The position numbers and the translations under genes were made by a program. Below, one piece after another: positions 35,111 to 60,424 of a DNA stretch of 64,000 nucleotides. Below the pieces are notes generated by a model. It did no database searches and was not told the origin of the DNA. It saw only the letters and a list, made by a program, of their open reading frames with translations. Origin of the DNA: a virus. Lineage: Duplodnaviria; Heunggongvirae; Uroviricota; Caudoviricetes. Within the stretch, counting starts at the first letter, position 1. Each line of letters starts with the position of its first letter. The stretch lies in the IMG/VR virus record IMGVR_UViG_3300009703_000007, positions 30,121 to 94,120 of that record. One strand, written 5' to 3'.

Positions 35111-35152
35111 AGAAAAGGAGACGCGCATGACGTGCTCCTCCTTTTCTTTTTT
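35109..35152. terminator. bidirectional terminator between convergent sigma and spoVR genes
   Basis: Perfect 12-bp arms AAAGAAAAGGAG (35109-35120) and CTCCTTTTCTTT (35138-35149). Confidence 0.75.
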
Positions 35153-36681
35153 CAGTCGACTAGGTGCATAGCAGCTTCGATGAAGTCCACCAATTCATCT
35201 TGGTGGACGGGCGAAGCTTCTTCTGACCACGTTGCTGTTCTCACGAGCACCTTACGCCCCCACATCTGAGCTAGTGCGCTGATTACGTCAACGGCACTAG
35301 AACGGTGTACCTCGGAATCTCCCAGATCCATCGCTTGCTCTATCAGTAGTTCTCGTCGGTTATCATGATTGCCATCGATTACTCGAAGTACAGGCTGTCC
35401 ACGGAAGGTGATACTGCTCACCAACGCATCCCGTATATCACGCCAGTCGTTCGTTTCTAGAACGATCTCGCCGTCAGATCTACGTTCGCTGTAAATGAAC
35501 ATGAGATGTTCCTCGACGAATTCTCTGTCGATGAACTCCTGGAGAAACTGAGCGTCGTTGTGTGTTCTACGCACTTCGAAGATCTTCTCCATCCCCTTCA
35601 TAGCTCCCGTGTCCCATTCCTTTCTCTTGACACGGTCCGTACACTCTTCCCACTCCTTGCCAAATCGCCCCTTGTCCCAACGCATCTTGATGTGCTGGAA
35701 CAACTTCCAGCCCAGCGCGTAGACGTTGAGACTGCTTTGCGGCCAATGCACCACTCCCGAATGATGACTGGCGTATGCTACGGCTTCGTTGCCTTCAGCG
35801 TATTCATCCATCAACGTAGTGTGCCAAGTCACTGCCCACCCCTCGTTCATGATCTTAGTCATGCCCTGAGGGTAGAAGTAGTAGGACTCCTCTCGGATCA
35901 TCGCAAGGATGTGGCGTTGCCAGTCCTTCATTTGGCCGTGTGCGATCAAGAATCCCAGGATGTCCCTTTCAGGTTCTGGAGGAAACTTAGTCTCCTTCCT
36001 GATCGCCGCGACGTACGCTTCCCGCTGTTCACAGATGTACGACGAGGGGTTCATGTAGGCCTGAAGATCTGGGTCGTCATCGTGGAATCGATGTGGGTCG
36101 AACTCCGTTGTACGGATGTCTGGGAGACTTCCTGTGTTGTCCTCTACGGCCAGCCTATCCTCGAATCCTGCTCTGTATGGCGCGTACGGGTCGATAAAGT
36201 TTTGGACACAGAGACACAGGTCGATCCATTTTTCTACGGCTTCTTCACCTACTCGATCAATGATTCGAGACACTCGTACCGCGTGATCCGCCATCATCTT
36301 AACAGACTTACGGTTGGTGTGCTGGAACCACTGGTTGTTCTTGAAGAAGTCGACGTGCCCGTAAACGTGTGCCATCACCAATTTCTGATCAATGTCCAGG
36401 TTGCCTTCCATTAGGTAAGCGTAACTGGGATCTGAGTTGATGACCATCTCGTAGATACGAGATCTGCCCCAACGGTAACGTTGCTGTACGGATTCGTACT
36501 CCTGTCCGAACGAGTAGTGCGGGTACCTTTGGGGGAACCCTCCGAATGCGGCTAGTGCCGACATCTCCTCTGAGGAGACCAGAATGAACTCTACAGGGTA
36601 GAAGTCCAATCCAGCGTCCTCAGCCAGCTCCGCTATCTTACGAACATGCGGCGCCAGCTTTGCTTCGATGATTTCACTCAT
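35152..36681 (-). CDS. spoVR: SpoVR/YcgB family protein
   Basis: GFPQRYPHYSFG, IYEMVINSDPSYAYL, MAHVYGHVDFFKNN, TKIMNEGWA. Confidence 0.9.
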   Translation of the reverse strand: MSEIIEAKLAPHVRKIAELAEDAGLDFYPVEFILVSSEEMSALAAFGGFPQRYPHYSFGQEYESVQQRYRWGRSRIYEMVINSDPSYAYLMEGNLDIDQKLVMAHVYGHVDFFKNNQWFQHTNRKSVKMMADHAVRVSRIIDRVGEEAVEKWIDLCLCVQNFIDPYAPYRAGFEDRLAVEDNTGSLPDIRTTEFDPHRFHDDDPDLQAYMNPSSYICEQREAYVAAIRKETKFPPEPERDILGFLIAHGQMKDWQRHILAMIREESYYFYPQGMTKIMNEGWAVTWHTTLMDEYAEGNEAVAYASHHSGVVHWPQSSLNVYALGWKLFQHIKMRWDKGRFGKEWEECTDRVKRKEWDTGAMKGMEKIFEVRRTHNDAQFLQEFIDREFVEEHLMFIYSERRSDGEIVLETNDWRDIRDALVSSITFRGQPVLRVIDGNHDNRRELLIEQAMDLGDSEVHRSSAVDVISALAQMWGRKVLVRTATWSEEASPVHQDELVDFIEAAMHLVD

Positions 36682-37847
36682 GAAAGAAGGGTCCTTATTG
36701 CTTCAGGTAGTTGATCGAAGTCAGTCATCAGCGCTACACGGATGTAATCAGCAATTTCGACTGCAGCGTTGGGTTGTTCTCTCCATTGGCTGAGCAGGTG
36801 GTGAAAATCCCTCCCATTCGACTCACACACCTGTGTATACCCGTAGAGAGCGAGTGAAGGGATGAGGTCTATCAGCGTGCTGAGATAGGATGGGAGGTCA
36901 GAAGAGAAGCAGTCACCATCTCCGTAATGGAAGATGTAGATGTTCCACTCCTTAGGGTCATAACGCTCCTTTATGATCTTCTGGGTCAGCTGCAGCGCCG
37001 ACGTCATCAACGTTCCTCCGCCCGCTGTTGTTCTCAGAAACTCGTCTCTAGTAGCTTCCCAGGCTTGGTGATCGTGTAGTACGTAAACGGACTCTTGTTT
37101 CCCGGCGTAGCAGTGTTCGATCCACAACTCCAACCAGTAGGATGCGGCATGGGCTAGGGCCGCTCTGTTTCCCCACGACATAGACGCTGAGACGTCACGT
37201 AGAAAGAAAACCACCGCCTTGGACGTGGGCCTAAGGATAGGCTTGATCGTTCGGTAGCGGAAATCATCGGGAAGAGGCAGAATGACGGGATCTTCTTCGT
37301 CATACACGCCTTCCGCGATGCTGCGGATGAGTGCCTGTATGATGGTATCCTTAGGGATAATCATTACGTCTGGGCCGACGTGCGTTTTACCGCTATACTT
37401 ATGGCCTACTACTTCCATCTCTCCACTGTGCTTTCGCACCATGTTGGGAAGCTCGAACTTTTCACCTAGAAGCTTTGCCAGCTCATCTCGGGTAAGCTCG
37501 AAGTCCGTAAGTCCATGTTCGCCGGGCTGGTCACCTGCCCCGGTGCCTCCCCTACCTCCTGGAGATCCAGGACGAAGGATATCTCCAGGCTGGCCACTGA
37601 CTCCGTTTCCAAAACCGTACCCCTTACCGTCTCCGCTGCTATTATTCGGTCCGAAACGGATACGCGGCAGGTTGATGCGCGGAATAGGCACCCGAACCTT
37701 TTTCTTTCCCTGGTGACCCACGAACGAATCGTCGGTCATGTACTTCTCGAGGTCCTTGCGAACCTTTCGCTTCCCTATATCCCGGAAGCGTTTGTGATTT
37801 CTTTTGTTGATGCCCTCTACGTCAGGCCGGACTCTGGAATCAGACAT
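36678..37847 (-). CDS. yeaH: YeaH/YhbH family vWA-domain protein (DUF444)
   Basis: KVRVPIPRINLPRIRFG, GAGDQPGEH, MIDAS-like RDVSASM, GGGTLMTSAL, WNIYIFHYGDGD; overlaps spoVR by 4 nt. Confidence 0.88.
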   Translation of the reverse strand: MSDSRVRPDVEGINKRNHKRFRDIGKRKVRKDLEKYMTDDSFVGHQGKKKVRVPIPRINLPRIRFGPNNSSGDGKGYGFGNGVSGQPGDILRPGSPGGRGGTGAGDQPGEHGLTDFELTRDELAKLLGEKFELPNMVRKHSGEMEVVGHKYSGKTHVGPDVMIIPKDTIIQALIRSIAEGVYDEEDPVILPLPDDFRYRTIKPILRPTSKAVVFFLRDVSASMSWGNRAALAHAASYWLELWIEHCYAGKQESVYVLHDHQAWEATRDEFLRTTAGGGTLMTSALQLTQKIIKERYDPKEWNIYIFHYGDGDCFSSDLPSYLSTLIDLIPSLALYGYTQVCESNGRDFHHLLSQWREQPNAAVEIADYIRVALMTDFDQLPEAIRTLLS

Positions 37848-37915
37848 TGCTTCCTAATAGTAGTGTCCTCCCCCGCCGCTAAGTGCGGAGGAGGAGACCA
37901 CTATTGGTTATGGGG

Positions 37916-39982
37916 TTACTTGCTCTCACCTCGAGCGAACACGGATGCCACGTACGCCAGGGCGTCCTTGGCGCAAACCTTGCAGTACCCGTGATCAGAG
38001 ACCAGACGCGCCTTTACGACGTCGATCTTCTCCTGTGTATCTTCGGACACGGCACCAGGGGTGACGAGCGAAGACAAGTGGACGACGTCCTTCTGCTTGT
38101 CGAACAGATATCGCTCCACCGCACGACGCATGTTGTCGTTCGTGGTGTAGTCGATGACCTTTCCCTTACGTTGCTGAATACCGATCCAGGACATCAGCTG
38201 CCCGCGATGGTCGGACTTGTTGGAGGTGTGAACCTCCGCCATGGCCTCGATCGCCGACATGAACTTCTCGTCCGGCTCTTCATCCTTCCCTGTGGTTGGG
38301 TTGCGGATCTTCTCCTTCGAGATGTACGCCGAGATGGAATCGATGTATCGTTCGAACACCTGCTGAGCCTGAGCCGGATCCGCGGCGATTGCTCGCTGCA
38401 CATCCGTCTGAGCCTTCTCCTTGTACTCACCCTCTACCTGCTCCAGCAGGGTCATGAATTGCTCTCGCTCGTCAGCGCTGGCGAGAGGGAGTCGTGAAAG
38501 AACGCGCTTTGTATCCTGGAAGAAGTTCCAAGGGTTGACGCACCCCTTCACCGTGTTTCGAGTGATGACGTTGTCGAAGACGTCCTGGAGGGTGCGCGGA
38601 GAAATGCCTCTGTCCATGCCCTCTCGCTTGCCGGCCTTTCGCATCTCCTTTACGGTTTCGTCCGTGAAGCCGTCGACGTGCTGTCCGTCGTAGAGCTTGA
38701 CCTTCTGCATGACGGTGACGACTCCACCCTTCGGCTCGTCCAATCGAGATGCCACAGCGAACATAGCCGCCATGTCGTAGGTGTGGGGGGCGATGTGCAC
38801 CCCACGGTCCTTGATATCTCGTTCGTAGATGCGGGCTTCCTGCGACATCTTCGTCACGTATGGGATCTCCATCGCTACCGTTCGGTTGCGCAGAGCCTCC
38901 ATGTATTCATCCGACTCCAACTTCTTGAGCTCTGGCTCGTTGTTGTGGCCGAGGATGACTGTGTCTACCGAGCACTGGGCGAACTTCTTCGGCTTGATCA
39001 TACCTTCTTCCGAAGCCGTGAGCAGGTCGTAGAGGAACGCTGTGTCCAGCTTCAACAATTCGACGAATTCGATGATGCCTCGGTTGGCCACCTGGAATTC
39101 TCCGTCGAAGTTGAAGGCACGTGGATCCGAATCGGAACCGTACACCGCGATCTTCCGGTAATTGAGGGAACCTGTCAGCTCAGTGGCATCCTGGTTCTTC
39201 TCGTCCTTCGGCTGGAAGGTACCGATGCCGGACCGGTTCGACTCGCTCAGGAACATCCGTGTGACCACGACGTGGTCGGCCAGCTTGGACCAGTCGCCCT
39301 TGAGCGCCGTCATCAACTTGGTGTAGACCAGGTTGGACAGAGGGTCCAGATCTCCCTTGAACGTCACCCGGCCCTTGCCGCCGGCCTTGACCGCTTCGAC
39401 GAAGGCCTGGCGGTTGTCTGGGTCGATGACGTAAATAGGGTCGTGGCTCATGGGAGCCTTGATCTCACGTACACCCTTTCCGAAGATCTCGTCGTAGTCG
39501 GCCTCTGCGAGGTGCTTGGTACGCACCCACTTGAACGTGTAGAGACGGCCTTCTCGAGTACGGCTGTACGCAGCTAGGCCCTTCTTGAATAGGCGGGCGA
39601 TCGTGGACTTCGCCGAGCCCACAGGACCATGGAGAAGCAGGATGCGCTTCGCCGTAGCGCCACCGTTGGCTGCCGACTGCAGCTTGGTCATGAGGCGCTC
39701 GATGTGGATCTCCGCACCGTACAGCGCGTCCGCTCCGTCGAAGGGGTCTCGGAAGAAGAGGAACTCCGTGTGCTTCCTCCCGAACTCGGTGAACACCTCG
39801 GTACCGTGCGACATGATCATGTCGAACAGTCGAGCATGCGCTCTTCGGCTGAGCGTAGGCTCTGCGTAAACTGCGTTGAGGTACTCCGGTAGGGTAAGGG
39901 TTTCCTCCAGAGCGGAGGTTTCCATTCCAGCTCGTCCACCCTGAATCATCGCCAGAGCGTCGAATACTGTCTTTTTAGCCAT
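37916..39982 (-). CDS. prkA: PrkA/YeaG family AAA+ ATPase (annotated serine kinase family)
   Basis: Walker A LLHGPVGSAKST, DPRAFNFDGEFQVANRGIIEFVELLK, GISPR; first gene of the canonical triad. Confidence 0.92.
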   Translation of the reverse strand: MAKKTVFDALAMIQGGRAGMETSALEETLTLPEYLNAVYAEPTLSRRAHARLFDMIMSHGTEVFTEFGRKHTEFLFFRDPFDGADALYGAEIHIERLMTKLQSAANGGATAKRILLLHGPVGSAKSTIARLFKKGLAAYSRTREGRLYTFKWVRTKHLAEADYDEIFGKGVREIKAPMSHDPIYVIDPDNRQAFVEAVKAGGKGRVTFKGDLDPLSNLVYTKLMTALKGDWSKLADHVVVTRMFLSESNRSGIGTFQPKDEKNQDATELTGSLNYRKIAVYGSDSDPRAFNFDGEFQVANRGIIEFVELLKLDTAFLYDLLTASEEGMIKPKKFAQCSVDTVILGHNNEPELKKLESDEYMEALRNRTVAMEIPYVTKMSQEARIYERDIKDRGVHIAPHTYDMAAMFAVASRLDEPKGGVVTVMQKVKLYDGQHVDGFTDETVKEMRKAGKREGMDRGISPRTLQDVFDNVITRNTVKGCVNPWNFFQDTKRVLSRLPLASADEREQFMTLLEQVEGEYKEKAQTDVQRAIAADPAQAQQVFERYIDSISAYISKEKIRNPTTGKDEEPDEKFMSAIEAMAEVHTSNKSDHRGQLMSWIGIQQRKGKVIDYTTNDNMRRAVERYLFDKQKDVVHLSSLVTPGAVSEDTQEKIDVVKARLVSDHGYCKVCAKDALAYVASVFARGESK

Positions 39983-48265: not shown

Positions 48266-48550
48266 ATGAACTTTTTATTTCAAAACGGCAAGGGCAAGTC
48301 GTCTAAAACAGCCACTGTGTACATCATCACGATGCTATTCGTGTGGTTTAAATTCGTACTGTCCGACACATCGTTTACTGTGATGGAACACAGCTTTGTG
48401 ATAGGAGCTCTTGATCCCATGTTGGTAGGCGCCATGGTGGGTGCTGCTGGCGCGGTCTACGGGTGGCGCAGACAGCAGGATTCCAAGGAACGTATGTCAG
48501 GGGATCCTGAGGCGCTCCTAGGAGAGCTTGAGAGGCTCTCAGAGGGGTAG
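48266..48550 (+). CDS. holin-like membrane protein
   Basis: 94 aa, two hydrophobic segments (VYIITMLFVWFKFVL; PMLVGAMVGAAGAVYGW), charged C-tail, after the fibre gene. Confidence 0.55.
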   Translation: MNFLFQNGKGKSSKTATVYIITMLFVWFKFVLSDTSFTVMEHSFVIGALDPMLVGAMVGAAGAVYGWRRQQDSKERMSGDPEALLGELERLSEG

Positions 48551-48552
48551 AC

Positions 48553-48966
48553 ATGCCCAACGATGTAGAAGCCCTTGTAGGGCGTGCTGTGGCCTCCTAC
48601 GAGGTCCTGAAGGATAAGCCCTGGTATAGGCGGTGGTGGTTCATCTTGTTAGCTGTGCTGGCTGCGTTGGCAGCCGCTTCGGCTATCGCCAAGGGAGTGC
48701 AAGCAGTACACCTCAAGAAGAAGACTGTGCGTACACAGAAGGCCGCGGTGCTTAAGAGCACGCAGATTATACGCCAGGAGAAGGACGCTAAGCGAAGGCA
48801 AGAGCTTGCCAAGAACGCTCTAGTGCTCAAGGCCAACCTGGATAAGCTGGACAAGGAACTGGACAAGGACCTTGAAGGGCTTACCAAAGCACAGGAAAAG
48901 ATCGCCAATGCTAAAAAATGGAAAGAGCTTTCTAGCGCTATGTCTGTCGATTCTGGTTCTTCTTAG
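48553..48966 (+). CDS. N-anchored coiled-coil membrane protein (i-spanin-like)
   Basis: WWFILLAVLAALAAASAIA transmembrane segment followed by a Lys-rich coiled coil. Confidence 0.5.
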   Translation: MPNDVEALVGRAVASYEVLKDKPWYRRWWFILLAVLAALAAASAIAKGVQAVHLKKKTVRTQKAAVLKSTQIIRQEKDAKRRQELAKNALVLKANLDKLDKELDKDLEGLTKAQEKIANAKKWKELSSAMSVDSGSS

Positions 48967-49414
48967 CCCGGTACCTGGGTTTGGACAGGAGCAGCCTACA
49001 GACCTTGCTGACGAAATGTCTTTCGACATGCTCGTCCTACCTGAGTTTGAGGTTCACTTAGAACTCAACAAAGTCTGCTACGACTTCGCAGGAGCACAGG
49101 AACTCGCAGCTAAAGACAGGGAGTTCCACAAAGTTATAATCCGTGAAGCAGATTGTTCTAAGAGAGCCAAGCTGCTAGGTGATGAGGTTGTTACCTTGCA
49201 GAGGGCGACGCTGTCTCTTCAGGCAGACCTCGATGAAGCCGAAGATAACCTGGTAGTTGCGTTTGGGCTGCTGCATTCGGCCGAAGAACAAAACCTGAAG
49301 CTTATGAACAGACCTCACCCTGCTGTGGTGGTACTAGCCATCGCGGGAGCCTTCCTAGGCGGAGCGGGCATTGGTATGGGTGTAGGTATCGGTGTAGGAC
49401 TAGGTTCTAACTAA
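48872..49414 (+). CDS. signal-peptide coiled-coil protein with C-terminal TM (spanin-like candidate)
   Basis: Likely start ATG 48908 (MLKNGKSFLALCLSILVLLSPVPGFG), heptad region, C-terminal VVVLAIAGAFLGGAGIGMGVGIGVGL. Confidence 0.5.
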   Translation: MKGLPKHRKRSPMLKNGKSFLALCLSILVLLSPVPGFGQEQPTDLADEMSFDMLVLPEFEVHLELNKVCYDFAGAQELAAKDREFHKVIIREADCSKRAKLLGDEVVTLQRATLSLQADLDEAEDNLVVAFGLLHSAEEQNLKLMNRPHPAVVVLAIAGAFLGGAGIGMGVGIGVGLGSN

Positions 49415-49753
49415 GTCCTTACATTCTGTACAGCTAGTGTATAGCAGTTGTACAGTAGTTGTACAGCAGATTCCTAAGTAGAAACATAGAGTTACAGAAC
49501 TCTATACCTAAAATAGGTAAAATACAGAAAAAGACATACATATACAGAGATACTCTCTTTGTTGTGTATGTCTTTTCTTATCCTTCTCTTATATATATAT
49601 TATATTTCTTTGAAAGAGATAATGTATATAAGAGAAGGATAAGTGCGTGGTATCGTTGAGAAAACTTACTGTACAGCTACTATACACTAAAATACAAACC
49701 GTAGTGATTACAGGTACTTAGTCCTTACATTTACTGTACACTGCGCTTACATT
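49414..49753. repeat. AT-rich non-coding element with nested inverted repeats and flanking direct repeats (origin or ncRNA candidate)
   Basis: 23-nt outer IR 49435-49457/49667-49689; inner hairpins 49486-49505, 49505-49519, 49529-49576 and a perfect 19-bp IR 49577-49595/49625-49643; AGTCCTTACATT at 49414 and 49720. Confidence 0.85.
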
Positions 49754-49757
49754 TAAC

Positions 49758-50285
49758 CTAAACGACCTTACCTGGAGACACCTTTCGGCCTACCAGCAGG
49801 TATCCGTCAGCTCGATTCCACGTCAGGATCTGTCCACACTTAGCGTCTGGCCTCCACGGTGCCCCTAGACTAATGTGTATCCAGGTTGGCTTGTTTGCAG
49901 CCCAGCCTTCGAGTATGAGCTGTCCAAACATGACGTCACTCTCATAAGCAATCCACTTCCAAACCTTTCGAAGATCTACTCGGTTGACGTGAAAGTCAGC
50001 TGCCTCAGCCTTCATGTGTTGAGAAGTCTTAGACCCACCGATAGCTTTGTTGAGGTCAGGGCCCCTATACCCGGAAGTGACGATGACTGGCCTCCGAAAC
50101 CGCGCTCGTACTGGCTCGAGTAAATCTGTGGCTACGCTCTTCAACTTGTCGTAGTGCTCCAGTCCGTCCTTTATGTTACTGTTCTGAAATCTTCGATGGC
50201 TCGTCTTAGTCATCTCTCTAAAAGAGAAGTGCTTAGAAAGTTTGGAGTCGATCCGAGTTAAGTCTTCAGGGCTGTAAATAGTCAT
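49758..50285 (-). CDS. peptidase M15A family endolysin-like protein
   Basis: VIVTSGYRGPDLNKAIGGSKTSQHMKAEAADF and WIHIS motifs. Confidence 0.88.
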   Translation of the reverse strand: MTIYSPEDLTRIDSKLSKHFSFREMTKTSHRRFQNSNIKDGLEHYDKLKSVATDLLEPVRARFRRPVIVTSGYRGPDLNKAIGGSKTSQHMKAEAADFHVNRVDLRKVWKWIAYESDVMFGQLILEGWAANKPTWIHISLGAPWRPDAKCGQILTWNRADGYLLVGRKVSPGKVV

Positions 50286-53342: not shown

Positions 53343-56300
53343 TTATCCACATCCCGTGGTTTCTCCACAGCTCTGGCAGGTGTAGCACGATCCTGCACGG
53401 ATGGCTATACCGCCACAATTATGGCACGGTTGGTTGTCTCCGAAGTCAGTTCTGACGTCAGAAAAGTTTACCTCGTCGTATTGCACTAATTCCTGTGTGA
53501 GACCTCTTACGGTTACCTCTCCAGAGGACAGCTGATCCAAGTATCGGGCCACATAGTCTACTATGGACGACGCAAAGCGAATATTCTCATTCTGCGTTAT
53601 GCCTTGTGGGGCGAAGTTAGCTCCACGTAGTTTGGTAGTGATAGCGTCTAGTGGCACGCCGTGTTGTAGGCCTATAGACATCATTACCGCTACGGCGTCT
53701 AGAAGGCCGCTAATGGTAGACCCTTCCTTAGAGCAGTTTATGAACACCTCTCCCACACCACCAGAAGGATAGAAGCCTGTGGTCACGTACCCCTCGAAGC
53801 CCCCTATAGTAAACTTGTGGACCTGTCCTGGACGTGTATCCGGCAGCCTTTTTCTAGGAGATCCTACAGGAGCCGCAGTTCTACCAGCGTTCTCATCGTA
53901 GGACTTGCCTGTACGTAAAGGCTGAGCGTCCTTACTACCATCCCGGTAGACTGCTACACACTTGAGTCCCTTAGTCCACGCAGTTTCGTAGATGTCTAAG
54001 ATGTCTTCGACTGTGGCGCTACTGGGCAGGTTGACTGTCTTGCTAATCGATCCGGATATAAACGGCTGGATGGCTTCCAACATGTCTATGTGTGCGGACC
54101 ATGGCAGTGCCACATCAAAGTCAGCGTCACTGCTCTCGAAGGAGCACTGGAAGATACGCTGCTCATCTGCAGAAAGCTTGTTGCATCCTTGTAGTGTGCC
54201 ATACGCTAGCACGTATGCTTCGATGGCTTCGATGTCTTCCTCAGACTTATGTAGGCGTCTGCGACAGGCGTCTATTACCGTTGGATTTGCCAACTGCATG
54301 ACGCCACCACCCACCAGCGTCTTGAACTTACGAAGGGCAAGCTCCGGTTCGCAGCCTGTAGTGTCACAACCCATAGCGAATGATATAGTTCCAGTAGGAG
54401 CTATGACTGATATCTGCGCGTTTCTAGGTGCTACATCGCTGGTAACAACTGTACTCCATGCGTCACTTGCAGCGAGTGCTAGCAGGTTAAGTGTGGTGAT
54501 GACACCTGGGGAGCTGATAGCCTGCACAGTTTTTTCCAAATCTGAATGGGCGTTCTCGTGCAACCTCAGCACTTCGCGCATGTTACCAGGATCTACTCCC
54601 TTAGCAGTACCTACGTCCCAAGTTAGGCTAATGCTCTTTTTGTACCCTGTAGCAGTCAGCAAGCTGGCTAAGCTAGCAGCTACCGCCCTCCCCTCAACTG
54701 AGTTGTACGGTACGCCCATACTCATGAGCAGCGCACCCAAGTTGGTATACCCTAAGCCCAGCGTTCGGTACAGTATGGAGTTCTCAGCTATCTTAGCTGT
54801 AGGGTAGTCAGCGCCACCCACGATTATGTCCATAGACAGTACTGCGTACTCTACGTCTTGCACAAACCGGCTTATGTCGAATGTGTTGTCTTCTATGTTG
54901 TAGTACTTCAGTAAGTTGAAGGACCCTAGATTGCACGCAGTGTCGTCTAGAAAGAGGTACTCTGAATTAGCTACCACTACGGAGTGGGTGCCTGTATCCG
55001 TAAAAGATGAAACCCCGAAGTTGTGCGTTCCTTCTACAGTAATGTCGTAGACAGGTACGGCTTCCTCTAGTGTTATGTGCTCTACGGAAGCAACGCGGTC
55101 GTTAGTCAGGTCTCGTCTTGACGAGATCCAGTCTGAGAACTTGTCCCAAGCCATGCCGCGAATTTTGCCGCCACGCGGTGAGCTAGCTGCTAGAGGTACA
55201 ATCCCCTTAAGTCCTTCATCGTGGATATGCTTGTTCCACCTGCCAGGGGTGACAGCAGACTCTACAGAGGTGTGCGTACCTCGAGGCTTGGATTCTATGT
55301 CCTCCCAGGTACTAACCAGTAGCTCCTCTGGTACATCGATGTACCTTGGATTCTTTTCTCCAGCACTGTGACTGCGGACGTGCTCGACGTGCTCCTCCAG
55401 CGTCAAGTTGCTGAGAAAGTCATTGGTAGCCTTTCCGTCTACGTGGTGTACGTGCATACCTTCGGGTATGTCTCCGTGGACTTGTGTCCACATCCAGCGT
55501 GCTAACACCTGTGTGCCAGACTTTATCTTGTCTGTTGGTCGCTGATTTATGTACCCTCTATCACTGCGCAGTGCGTTTCGCCATTTGCCTATCTTACGAA
55601 GCCGGGCTCCTTCCTCGAGGTCCTGTGCTTCCACGTAAGTGTCTACGCCGTGCGTACGAACTAAAAACTTGTGCTCTGGGGTGCAAGTCAATACAATGCC
55701 TTTATCTGTGGTAACCTTAACTAGCTTGTTAGTATGCCCAGATACCCAGGCAGCTTGTATTTTTTTAAGGACAGGTAGCCGACTTTCAATATCGTAGCTG
55801 TACGCGTACGGTAGACCCTCATTAGCGTCGAATTTTCTAGACAGCTCTTGTATTTCTACACGGCCTTCAGATGTGTCTACCCGTGTTTCTCCTACAAAGC
55901 AACACGGGTTTGACGCCCTGATTCTATCCACATGGCCACTAGTATGCCACTTCTGGATAGTGTCATCATACTGCAAACCGGGGTCTCCACACGCATACGC
56001 AGCCTCAGCAACCTCTTTGAGTAACGCCGCTGCGTTGACCTTCTTGGCTACGCCTCCGTCTGTACGTCGAGTTAAGTTCCAGTTAGGGGTGACGTCATCA
56101 GTAACAGCCAGGGACATGAATCCGTCTGTGACTCTAACGGAGTGATTTGCATTCTGGTGGAACACCGACGCGTAGGCTTCTCCGTTAAGCCCGGGCGTGT
56201 AACCAGCAGCAATCAGCTTCTTAGCCTTCTCGTCCTCCGTGACCTTGCAGGTGATGAACTCCTGTATGTCAGGATGATCCACATCCAAGATCATCATGCG

Positions 56301-56960
56301 AGCAGCTCTTCGTGTAGCTCCCCCACTCTTGATAGCGCCTGCCCAGGCGTCTAGCCCTCTCATGAAGGAGAGAGGTCCGGTAGAAGTTCCTCCTGTACTC
56401 AGGGGCTCTCCTTGCGCTCGAAGCTTAGACATGTTGGAACCGGTCCCTGAGCCTCCCTTGAACAGGATCCCCTCCGTCATACCCAGCGCTAGGATGGACT
56501 CCATGTTGTCTTCTACGGAGTTGATGAAGCAAGCACTAGCCTGCTGTGATCTGCCTTCGGCTCCAAGGTTGAACCACACTGGAGAGTTCCAAAAGAACCT
56601 CTGCGACAGCACCATGTCCATAAGCCGCGTATAGCAGTCACGTGATCCTTGGAGGTCAAAGTATCCATCCCTAACTCCCCAATCACAGATGCGAGAGCAC
56701 ACTCTGTGTGCAAGGTTGAAGATACTAGTCTCTCGACGTTCTGTACCCTGTTGTCCTCTAAAATATTTGTTAGCTACAATTTGAACTGACTGGTTTGTCC
56801 AGCTCTCAGGACACTCAACAGCCTCTTGCTCAAAAATCACGTCACCGTTCGCGTCCTCTATTCTAACATCTACGTACTTCCAGGTGACGTTAGCGTACGC
56901 GTCTTTGATAGCGTTTATAGCTACCGATTCAGTCTCTCTTAAATTGTTATGAGACAGCAT
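53343..56960 (-). CDS. nrdJ: class II (B12-dependent) ribonucleotide reductase with intein and C-terminal Zn ribbon
   Basis: WNSPVWFN, QASACFI, SNPC|SEY, ACNLGS, VIAPTGTISFAMG, ISGSISKTVN, KCVAVYRDGSK, C-terminal CHNC...CQSC. Confidence 0.93.
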   Translation of the reverse strand: MLSHNNLRETESVAINAIKDAYANVTWKYVDVRIEDANGDVIFEQEAVECPESWTNQSVQIVANKYFRGQQGTERRETSIFNLAHRVCSRICDWGVRDGYFDLQGSRDCYTRLMDMVLSQRFFWNSPVWFNLGAEGRSQQASACFINSVEDNMESILALGMTEGILFKGGSGTGSNMSKLRAQGEPLSTGGTSTGPLSFMRGLDAWAGAIKSGGATRRAARMMILDVDHPDIQEFITCKVTEDEKAKKLIAAGYTPGLNGEAYASVFHQNANHSVRVTDGFMSLAVTDDVTPNWNLTRRTDGGVAKKVNAAALLKEVAEAAYACGDPGLQYDDTIQKWHTSGHVDRIRASNPCCFVGETRVDTSEGRVEIQELSRKFDANEGLPYAYSYDIESRLPVLKKIQAAWVSGHTNKLVKVTTDKGIVLTCTPEHKFLVRTHGVDTYVEAQDLEEGARLRKIGKWRNALRSDRGYINQRPTDKIKSGTQVLARWMWTQVHGDIPEGMHVHHVDGKATNDFLSNLTLEEHVEHVRSHSAGEKNPRYIDVPEELLVSTWEDIESKPRGTHTSVESAVTPGRWNKHIHDEGLKGIVPLAASSPRGGKIRGMAWDKFSDWISSRRDLTNDRVASVEHITLEEAVPVYDITVEGTHNFGVSSFTDTGTHSVVVANSEYLFLDDTACNLGSFNLLKYYNIEDNTFDISRFVQDVEYAVLSMDIIVGGADYPTAKIAENSILYRTLGLGYTNLGALLMSMGVPYNSVEGRAVAASLASLLTATGYKKSISLTWDVGTAKGVDPGNMREVLRLHENAHSDLEKTVQAISSPGVITTLNLLALAASDAWSTVVTSDVAPRNAQISVIAPTGTISFAMGCDTTGCEPELALRKFKTLVGGGVMQLANPTVIDACRRRLHKSEEDIEAIEAYVLAYGTLQGCNKLSADEQRIFQCSFESSDADFDVALPWSAHIDMLEAIQPFISGSISKTVNLPSSATVEDILDIYETAWTKGLKCVAVYRDGSKDAQPLRTGKSYDENAGRTAAPVGSPRKRLPDTRPGQVHKFTIGGFEGYVTTGFYPSGGVGEVFINCSKEGSTISGLLDAVAVMMSIGLQHGVPLDAITTKLRGANFAPQGITQNENIRFASSIVDYVARYLDQLSSGEVTVRGLTQELVQYDEVNFSDVRTDFGDNQPCHNCGGIAIRAGSCYTCQSCGETTGCG
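54966..55901 (-). mobile_element. 312-aa intein with HNH homing endonuclease
   Basis: Starts CFVGETRV after NPC, ends VVVAN before Ser+1 (SEY); block F PVYDITVEGTHNF; HNH motif HVHHVDGKATNDFLSNL. Confidence 0.9.
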
Positions 56961-59275: not shown

Positions 59276-60424
59276 TTACTCAAGTTGAGCTGCGTGTAAT
59301 TCCTTAGCTTCGTTAAGCACTGGAAGAAGTTTATCGCGTTTGGCCGGATTGACCTGGCCCATGTAATTTACCATGCCAACCAAGTGCTGGTGTAGTTGGA
59401 GACCCGAGTCGAATCCTGCTCTACCAGCTTGCGCGTCAAACCCTGTCTTCAGACAGTTGTGAACCAACGCTCTGTACTTCAAGTACTTGGTTCTCGGGAC
59501 GTTAGCATGGGCGTTTACCACCATGCCTAGTACGATCTGACGTCCACCAGATCTTTCTACTTTTGTTTTGTTGTGGTTGACTCTGAACCTGCAACCTCTC
59601 ACTATGTTGTACAGCTTTTGCAGCATCCAGTCAACTACTACACGAGGTATGGCGTGGGACGATGAGATGTCAAGATCATCGCTGTACCTCGTGTATGTAA
59701 GTTTTAGGTCTTTGGGAAATACATACTCTACCCACTCAACATCCCCACGACTTGTCACCATAACTTTGGACCAGTCGTAGTCGTAATTGCTTTGCCAGAC
59801 ACCGTCCTTAGGGAAAACCTGTCGCTTGCCTGGTAGTGTGTCTAGAAAGCTCCGTATTCTGGGATCCAGAGATTGCATAGCCGCTAGATTGCAAACATCT
59901 CCACTTGTAGGAGCCCCCTGTGGAACAGTGCCATCCTTGGTACATATATCAGCCACTACGCGCGACGCCGTGTGACTCATGCCCAGCGTTCTCAGAGCCG
60001 ATGAAACCATAAAGTATGTCGTGGTATCGAAGAACGACTCCAAGTCCATGGATATGATTAGTTTGGATCCGGTGTGCTGGTCAGCTGTGTGCCTACACGA
60101 CCTCCCACTAACGTAGGCCCCCACGTGATCCGGTTTAGGTATTCTGTGTAGTACACGCTTAGTCAGCCTCTTCTGAGCGAACTTCAGTGGACGCGAGGGA
60201 TTCCATACCTGTCGGTACTTCCCGCCCTTCTTAGGGATGCGTATGCTGGTGTACATACCATTCTTAGCCTTACTCAAGTACCATAGAAACTTGGGCGAGA
60301 CGCCCATTGCATTTGCAATAGCGCCTAGGTCGGCGGGTATAGTCGTCAGGTTAACATTGACTGCTGTTACAGCAGCCTCCAAACCTGGAGTATCATTAGA
60401 ATTCGATAATCCTGCTATTTTCAT
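59276..60424 (-). CDS. retron-type reverse transcriptase
   Basis: IPKKGGKYRQVWNP, LKFAQK, AYVSGRS..TADQH (NAxxH-like), MDLESFF, VPQGAPTS, YTRYSDD, VNHNKT, QIVLGMVVN (VTG-like), GMVNYMGQVNP. Confidence 0.9.
   Translation of the reverse strand: MKIAGLSNSNDTPGLEAAVTAVNVNLTTIPADLGAIANAMGVSPKFLWYLSKAKNGMYTSIRIPKKGGKYRQVWNPSRPLKFAQKRLTKRVLHRIPKPDHVGAYVSGRSCRHTADQHTGSKLIISMDLESFFDTTTYFMVSSALRTLGMSHTASRVVADICTKDGTVPQGAPTSGDVCNLAAMQSLDPRIRSFLDTLPGKRQVFPKDGVWQSNYDYDWSKVMVTSRGDVEWVEYVFPKDLKLTYTRYSDDLDISSSHAIPRVVVDWMLQKLYNIVRGCRFRVNHNKTKVERSGGRQIVLGMVVNAHANVPRTKYLKYRALVHNCLKTGFDAQAGRAGFDSGLQLHQHLVGMVNYMGQVNPAKRDKLLPVLNEAKELHAAQLE

Follow-up and report, generated by a model that had tools for sequence, protein, structure and literature searches.

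What is the role of a gap of 343 nucleotides (nt) that holds no gene and is densely filled with inverted repeats? The gap, here called E1, occupies positions 49415..49757 of the window, a 64,000-nt stretch of phage DNA (G000:C1:30121-94120) whose source is a 158-kilobase (kb) IMG/VR phage record, IMGVR_UViG_3300009703_000007 (G000). An earlier note, made from the letters of the window, had offered two readings of the element: a replication origin, which it favoured, or a detached retron-like RNA that serves a reverse transcriptase (RT) encoded in the same window. Our analysis indicates that E1 is real and that it is probably a replication origin or a genome organiser, not a retron RNA. Given its core, its mirror-image arms and its several copies, E1 is a module of an evenly spaced set of the type carried by Salmonella phage Arash, and the genome around it, judged from common structural genes, belongs to the Arash-type family, whose phages have genomes of ~180 kb and have been little studied.

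Architecture of E1

E1 is non-coding on the map of open reading frames (ORFs) and in sequence, and has no strand of its own. Its guanine + cytosine (GC) content falls to 0.23 in 120 nt, the minimum of the 158-kb record, and is 0.32 for the whole gap, as against 0.52 for the window; the 25% GC noted earlier for 49501-49640 was reproduced on recomputation (0.25). Compared with shuffled sequences, the element folds with z-scores of -11.7 (+ strand) and -7.8 (- strand). All the repeats that the earlier note had described were recovered in place, far above chance. The outer inverted repeat (49435-49457 / 49667-49689) is 23 nt long and 91% complementary, and its right arm is formed by inverted A-boxes (49667..49689, - strand; repeat search and motif map). 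The left array of A-boxes (49427..49470, + strand) consists of four tandem 11-nt units, TGTAYAGYAGT, for which the repeat search gave spacings of 11 and 11; its TGTACA units, 11 nt apart, are thus phased by one helical turn. TGTACA occurs five times in the 343 nt, where 0.15 sites are expected (Poisson P = 5e-7); the three CTTACATT sites are all that the window contains, and the two GTCCTTACA sites, the second at 49721, are all that the 158-kb record contains. To the right lies a conserved block (49690..49756, + strand) of TACA-cored boxes (AATACAA, GATTACAGG, CCTTACATT, CTGTACAC and GCTTACATT), and TACA boxes at 49683-49751 are spaced 10-17 nt apart. Most of E1 is enclosed by a 16-nt direct repeat, ACTAAGTCCTTACATT at 49410..49425 (+ strand) and ACTTAGTCCTTACATT at 49716-49731; the left copy carries the B-box CCTTACAT and overlaps the stop codon of the upstream gene.

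Between the arms lies the core palindrome (49577..49643), CCTTCTC-TTATATATA ... TATATAA-GAGAAGG, a presumed unwinding or cruciform site. The perfect stem of 19 base pairs (bp) reported here exists, and it proved to be the base of a larger palindrome, 49577-49608 / 49612-49643, with 32-nt arms that are 84% complementary. Two short, lineage-specific hairpins occupy 49486..49519: ATAGAGTT-ACAG-AACTCTAT, with a perfect 8-bp stem (49486-49505), and TACCTA-AAA-TAGGTA (49505-49519), which also forms in the minimum-free-energy fold. Three A-tracts (49510..49532, + strand) start at 49510, 49519 and 49528, and this 9-nt spacing suggests bent DNA. Repeat search and folds also show a stem with an inner stem (49529..49576), in which a perfect 12-bp pairing (49529-49540 / 49565-49576) encloses another of 5 bp and is flanked by A5 and T4.

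An ORF of 66 amino acids (aa) at 49459-49659 was rejected as a gene: it sits in the poorly conserved left and core part, where the alignment with a related contig (L025) shows 41-59% identity with indels. Among further features considered from the sequence of E1, neither a telomere-resolution site nor DnaA boxes nor sigma-70 promoters proved convincing or conserved.

Conservation at the same locus

Syntenic metagenomic contigs form three groups by endolysin identity: L025, L026 and L030 (69%), L031 (56%), and L032, L033 and L041 (54%). In all three, a gap of 330-420 nt lies at the position of E1 and follows the same plan, namely short boxes arrayed on the left, then a stretch rich in A, a CTCTC-type pyrimidine run that leads into a (TA)n run, an AGAGGG purine run, and on the right an array of the left-hand boxes, inverted. 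The type of box switches on both arms together, being TGTACAG in this phage and in L032 and GTCCTTACAT with ATGTAAGGAC in L031; L032 and L025 have left arrays equivalent to the TGTAYAGYAGT array, and those of L031 are made of B-boxes. The right block is 85-92% identical among the relatives, and against L025 it reaches 90% (49690-49756) and 92% (49704-49741), above the DNA identity of the two flanking genes (65% and 57%). Apart from the core, the inner hairpins are mostly unconserved, and in L025 the place of the hairpins at 49486..49519 is taken by one that is GC-rich and resembles a terminator. A conserved motif that recurs in tandem and in phase suggests protein binding; RNA stems would keep their pairing and would not need the sequence of the motif.

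A blastn search of E1 against 50,697 phage records gave no match. Pattern scans of IMG/VR returned one chance match for TGTAYAGYAGTTGTACAG, in a coding region of an unrelated 3.6-kb contig, and nothing for AGGTACTTAGTCCTTACA or for a 30-mer from the flank of the second module described below. A scan of one metagenome recovered the L025 contig again and nothing further, and a search for related loci with tail proteins of 603 and 530 aa found no close relatives.

A second module in the same genome

E1 had been called the only long non-coding stretch; it is the longest in the window but is not unique in the genome, where a second copy, E2, lies outside the window. E2 was first seen through a second Logan contig (19,273 nt, of equal depth) that matches 49691-49741 with five differences, and its sequence was read from a 177-kb ENA contig, reached by exact protein matches, in a region outside the IMG/VR record. 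This contig (177,388 nt; L039 is its stretch 1-20589) holds the same genome, and its first 141 nt are repeated as its last 141 nt, which implies a circular map of about 177.2 kb. E2 (ENA 380-830) lies between co-directional genes, and its core, with a GC content of 0.18, contains a (TA)n run. The right block of E1 recurs in it (51 nt, 90%), and its left arm is an inverted copy of that block (63 nt, 84%). E1 and E2 are old, diverged copies that have only motifs in common beyond the 51-nt block.

On the rebuilt circle, motif matches cluster at E1 (15 per 500 nt) and E2 (19 per 500 nt), with 3 at the next best place. (TA)5 occurs in the 177 kb at E1 and E2 only, and the two 120-nt windows of lowest GC in the genome are E1 (0.23) and E2 (0.18). 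The two modules are 80.1 and 97.1 kb apart around the 177.2-kb circle, a spacing that is weak evidence when taken alone (P = 0.10). An AT-rich gap at G000 124.8 kb was ruled out as a third copy by the motif scan of the circle.

Several minor observations concern the surroundings of E2. About 700 nt without a called gene follow it (L039:830-1515) and hold an 80-aa GTG ORF with hydrophobic segments; a similar empty stretch, also of about 700 nt, adjoins copy 5 of the Arash modules. A homologue search with a 258-aa protein encoded near E2 returned the query itself as its sole match. A stretch of 19.3 kb (within L039:1-20589) is absent from the IMG/VR record and forms the separate contig of equal depth in Logan. 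The breaks of three assemblies fall roughly 240-430 nt from E2, and those of IMG/VR and Logan also fall at ENA ~19.3 kb; strain variation, low coverage or real ends may be the cause.

Evenly spaced modules in related phages

The baseplate wedge protein matches Arash gp13 and its counterpart in phage D181 (24% identity over 86-89% of length), and among the 50,697 phage records matches to the baseplate protein were confined to Arash and three Vibrio phages. Arash carries five modules of about 215 nt each, 86-96% alike. Each combines an AT-rich core with several GGTTACAA boxes and a terminal inverted repeat of 14 nt, and 20 of the 21 TATATA words of the genome fall in the cores. The modules lie at 26.7, 66.5, 100.2, 138.6 and 173.3 kb of the Arash genome, with intervals of 39.7, 33.8, 38.3, 34.8 and 34.2 kb (minimum-gap P = 2e-5). 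In D181 there are three modules, quasi-palindromic and about 400 nt long, which are separated by 57.6, 61.1 and 68.7 kb (P = 0.006). A forward test on five more IMG/VR genomes of 172-183 kb (G001-G005), recovered by alignment, found five modules in each: three of these genomes contain TATATATA five times and no more, at distances of about 35 kb, and the other two each have five dispersed repeats. Across the relatives, the minimum-gap probability lies between 2e-5 and 6e-3 for each genome; those with five copies are probably relatives of one another and are therefore not counted as independent events.

Copies are 77-96% alike inside one genome and unalignable between genomes. The arm motif is specific to each lineage and present on both arms, and a CTCTC-TATATA ... 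TATA-GAGGG core is common to the lineages, having been found in E1, L025, L031, L032, Arash, D181, G001 and G005; the whole plan of palindromic core and mirror-image arms recurs in all of these and in E2. E1 thus resembles the Arash-type modules in an AT-rich core that is the GC minimum of the genome, in mirror arrays of a phage-specific motif, in regular multiple copies and in CTCTC-TATATA. By contrast, its lineage has two diverged copies (the 51-nt block at 90%), where Arash has five that are 86-96% identical; it mixes two box types, TGTACAG and CCTTACAT; and E1 sits inside a split lysis cassette. The orientation of the Arash modules is constant whether the neighbouring genes are arranged -/-, +/- or +/+, and they are thus not promoters or terminators of those genes; in G001, one copy is inverted. 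Arash has no module at its syntenic convergent junction, the site at which gp17 and gp18c overlap. Among the gene junctions of ten modules, four are convergent, against about 11% expected (P ~0.02), and one is divergent.

Full-text literature searches on evenly spaced phage repeats and on D181 returned nothing relevant, and no published description of the modules was found; the Arash paper (PMC10585845) does not mention repeats, termini or origins. E2 and a two-copy lineage with diverged copies are new here.

Assemblies often stop in or beside modules. The contigs L032 and L033 break off within the left array of their own E1, and L029 does so at the left B-box; the G002 and G004 contigs start 150-240 nt from a module. 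These ends may reflect repeats and low coverage of AT-rich DNA, or they may be physical ends.

Modules as candidate replication origins

The interpretation that we tentatively prefer is that the modules are protein-bound and origin-like, several replication origins per genome explaining more of the features than the other readings do. E1 would then act in cis as DNA and not as a gene. A lineage-specific phage protein would bind both mirror-image arms through the 7-11-nt TGTACAG / CCTTACAT boxes, which recur at about one helical turn, and would thereby load onto or bend the DNA around the core, whose CTCTC-TATATA palindrome (GC 0.23) is predicted to be the most easily melted and most cruciform-prone DNA of the genome. 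With three or five modules at near-equal intervals in the relatives, and the sister module E2 at 80/97 kb here, the favoured role would be the initiation of lytic DNA replication at several equally spaced origins, possibly with an added enhancer or insulator role, as in the homologous regions (hrs) of baculoviruses. An arm motif that each lineage has as its own, on both arms, would by analogy resemble iterons that co-evolve with their initiator.

Iteron origins such as ori-lambda and SPP1 oriL/oriR have tandem, helically phased repeats beside an AT-rich region, and in oriL/oriS of herpes simplex virus (HSV) an AT-rich palindrome lies between inverted UL9 boxes. Tandem, helically phased repeats are clustered in this genome at E1 and E2 only, and those of E1 adjoin an AT-rich region (49501-49640). 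The anatomy on which the earlier note had based its origin is thus upheld, and the conserved position and design, the duplication and the even spacing strengthen it. The GC-skew check that it had proposed is unsupportive.

Several results weigh against origins. The cumulative GC skew has a maximum at E1, where an origin would normally produce a minimum, and this maximum follows the convergent gene orientation; the minimum lies away from E1, near G000 12 kb. A regression in which the effect of gene strand was separated from that of a bidirectional origin gave inconsistent coefficients in three genomes (+0.012, 0 and -0.012). Since neither the skew nor the regression gives support, origin activity is something we infer. 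No initiator or replication family is recognisable among the neighbours of E1 (endolysin, small membrane proteins) or of E2 (small ORFs of unknown function), and the junction counts, four of ten modules convergent and one divergent, are the reverse of the usual context of an origin. Finally, even spacing could equally fit a structural or topological role.

About 18 kb before the start of the window, at G000:C1:11799-12265, lies a tandem repeat tract of about 470 nt with copies 80-91% alike, which coincides with the GC-skew minimum and with the main divergent switch of gene orientation. This tract is a candidate alternative origin or early control region. The IMG/VR and ENA assemblies differ by ~249 nt within G000 1-80,405, and the tract is our guess for the site.

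Alternative explanations

The retron reading held that E1 encodes a detached msr-msd RNA that is reverse-transcribed in trans by the RT at 59276-60424 (- strand). This RT is retron-type by profile (PADLOC RT families, 1e-57), with matches to the NCBIfam profiles of retron St85, Ec67 and TIR-RT that are all below their cut-offs; there is no non-coding DNA upstream of it, and the outer inverted repeat of E1 does enclose hairpins. RT and E1 are also found together in L041, the relative with 54% endolysin identity in which the RT is conserved at the same place (L041:1462-2661), although there it is a syntenic gene of the lineage. The RT is nevertheless 9.5 kb and about nine genes away from E1, and the proposed RNA is on the opposite (+) strand. 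In the arms, an 11-nt motif is repeated in tandem and its sequence is conserved, and the covariation that the earlier note had suggested looking for was not seen; the relatives swap the type of motif on both arms, a second copy lies 80/97 kb away, and most of the inner hairpins are unconserved. A cmscan of the element against Rfam 15 returned sub-threshold, hairpin-type chance matches only, and the 234-nt gap 3' of the RT aligns with L041 as an ORF of 37-39 aa preceded by a ribosome-binding site, with no structured RNA. Co-occurrence counts against this reading as well: a search with PF00078 (RVT_1) hit G000 (1.6e-14) and found no match in Arash, with its five modules, or in D181, with its three, both of them complete genomes. 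Modules of the same design are thus present in relatives that lack the RT, the outcome named beforehand as refuting a retron, and we regard this reading as hardly credible. It is also very improbable, if less so, that E1 is a selfish miniature mobile element, like a miniature inverted-repeat transposable element or a homing element, that has multiplied in these genomes. In its favour are the terminal inverted repeats, the direct repeat of 16 nt around most of E1 and the presence of several similar copies in each genome, of which G001 has one in inverted orientation. The site of E1, however, is fixed by synteny down to 54% endolysin identity, the spacing is too regular for random insertion, and E1 and E2 are old and diverged. 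The right copy of the direct repeat, moreover, lies 27 nt past the right arm of the inverted repeat and is therefore not a target-site duplication.

Two further explanations keep the modules as protein-binding DNA and give them another task. The modules might be transcription hubs for the phage RNA polymerase, either insulators or terminators or promoter-plus-terminator units from which a short non-coding RNA is made; the arm boxes would then be sites for regulators. The family encodes RNA polymerase beta, beta' and sigma, which Arash packages (PMC10585845). Modules end transcription units, as the excess of convergent junctions indicates; the stem at 49529-49576, with its A5 and T4 flanks, is laid out like a bidirectional terminator, at the matching place of L025 a GC-rich hairpin precedes T4, and the TATATA-rich core might serve as a -10-like element. 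This stem is, however, GC-poor, with 3 G-C pairs in 12 bp, and a terminator scan called nothing within E1, this stem included. The boxes are found nowhere else in the 177 kb, so they are not general promoters. The unchanged orientation of the Arash modules, the unconserved inner hairpins outside the core and the absence of an Rfam family also count against a hub, which leaves the even spacing unexplained, and we consider it rather unlikely. An organising role would account for that spacing, which holds in all genomes examined: the modules could anchor, at equal distances, a protein of structural, topoisomerase, partition or packaging function and so divide the chromosome into equal domains, much as Mu has a central strong gyrase site and N15 has dispersed centromeres. 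Dense arrays of binding-type boxes on both arms, positions outside promoter regions and the frequent breaks of contigs at or near modules agree with this. On the other side, an extreme AT-rich palindromic core, conserved through the family, would be superfluous for an anchor, no partner protein has been identified, and the breaks have trivial causes in the repeats of five-copy genomes and the low coverage of AT-rich DNA; we judge such anchors unlikely. In its strongest form, in which the modules are organisers of the phage chromosome and not origins, equally spaced docking stations of a new kind by which the genome is partitioned into two to five domains of equal size, the idea is unlikely to a slightly greater degree. 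Candidate roles would then be loop anchors, topological barriers, or entry or insulation points for RNA polymerase delivered by the virion, and the arm boxes would co-evolve with a reader protein particular to the lineage.

Comparison with known systems

Seen as origins, modules of the E1 type can be compared with HSV oriL/oriS, which likewise have a palindromic AT-rich centre flanked by inverted initiator boxes and several copies per genome. HSV is a eukaryotic virus with unrelated UL9 boxes, and its origin activity is proven, whereas that of E1 is a prediction. SPP1 oriL/oriR and ori-lambda share the tandem repeats beside an AT-rich, bent region, and SPP1 also has two distant copies, bound there by one organiser protein. 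These origins lie in or beside the initiator gene, whereas no recognisable initiator is near E1 or E2, and they are neither evenly spaced nor built on a single large palindrome. Baculovirus hrs, thought to serve as origins and enhancers, are similarly dispersed AT-rich imperfect palindromes, alike within a genome and divergent between genomes, but they are tandem units of about 70 bp bound by IE-1 in an unrelated virus realm. T4, with oriA, E, F and G, likewise has several origins in one large lytic phage genome; each is a promoter with an unwinding element, and they are mutually dissimilar and unevenly spaced.

Retron msr-msd regions have in common with E1 an outer inverted repeat around stem-loops and a retron-type RT in the same genome. 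They differ from it in that E1 is not beside the RT, is duplicated, is present in RT-less relatives and has arms that are motif arrays. Repetitive extragenic palindromes (REPs) and bacterial interspersed mosaic elements (BIMEs) are extragenic palindromes at gene ends, and the Mu gyrase site is position-specific and central. REPs are about 35 bp long, GC-rich and present in hundreds of copies, and neither REP/BIME nor the Mu site has an AT-rich core between repeat arrays.

To our knowledge, essentially nothing is established about how replication starts and is organised in large lytic phages that encode an RNA polymerase. In the family studied here, the chromosome seems to be marked at equal distances by two, three or five modules that resemble one another, each with a conserved, meltable palindrome and with arms whose motif differs between lineages. 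Should the modules be origins, bacteriophages would offer a clear example of replication from several regularly spaced origins, and metagenomes would reveal the co-evolution of iterons and initiator directly; otherwise, the modules would indicate a system of genome organisation that has yet to be described. These alternatives are testable at the bench, because Salmonella Typhimurium supports the growth of Arash, and D181 is an isolate described as a Vibrio phage. For annotation, the analysis removes a tempting but wrong link between E1 and the retron-type RT of the phage.

Genes around E1

E1 fills the 343-nt gap between two convergent genes. The upstream gene (48872..49414, + strand) is an ORF of up to 180 aa (168 aa as called in ENA) with a C-terminal glycine-zipper; profile searches gave no family match for its product, which from its sequence and neighbours is probably a membrane or lysis protein. 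The downstream gene (49758..50285, - strand) encodes a Peptidase_M15 endolysin (Pfam PF08291, 1.5e-18; PHROG 894 endolysin, 3e-34). The lysis genes seem to be divided by E1: in 48266-50285, + strand ORFs of 94, 137 and up to 180 aa face the endolysin, and the 137-aa ORF has a weak PHROG match to superinfection exclusion.

Baseplate and tail genes lie on the + strand to the left of E1. To its right, on the - strand, the M15 endolysin is followed by thymidylate kinase, an intein-bearing ribonucleotide reductase, RuvC and others. The reductase (53343-56960, - strand) is a class II enzyme of 1205 aa with an intein and an HNH endonuclease; its orthologue in L041 has 929 aa and no intein or HNH match. 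A complete PrkA / DUF444 (YeaH-like) / SpoVR triad lies at 35152-39982 (- strand), antisense amid the tail genes.

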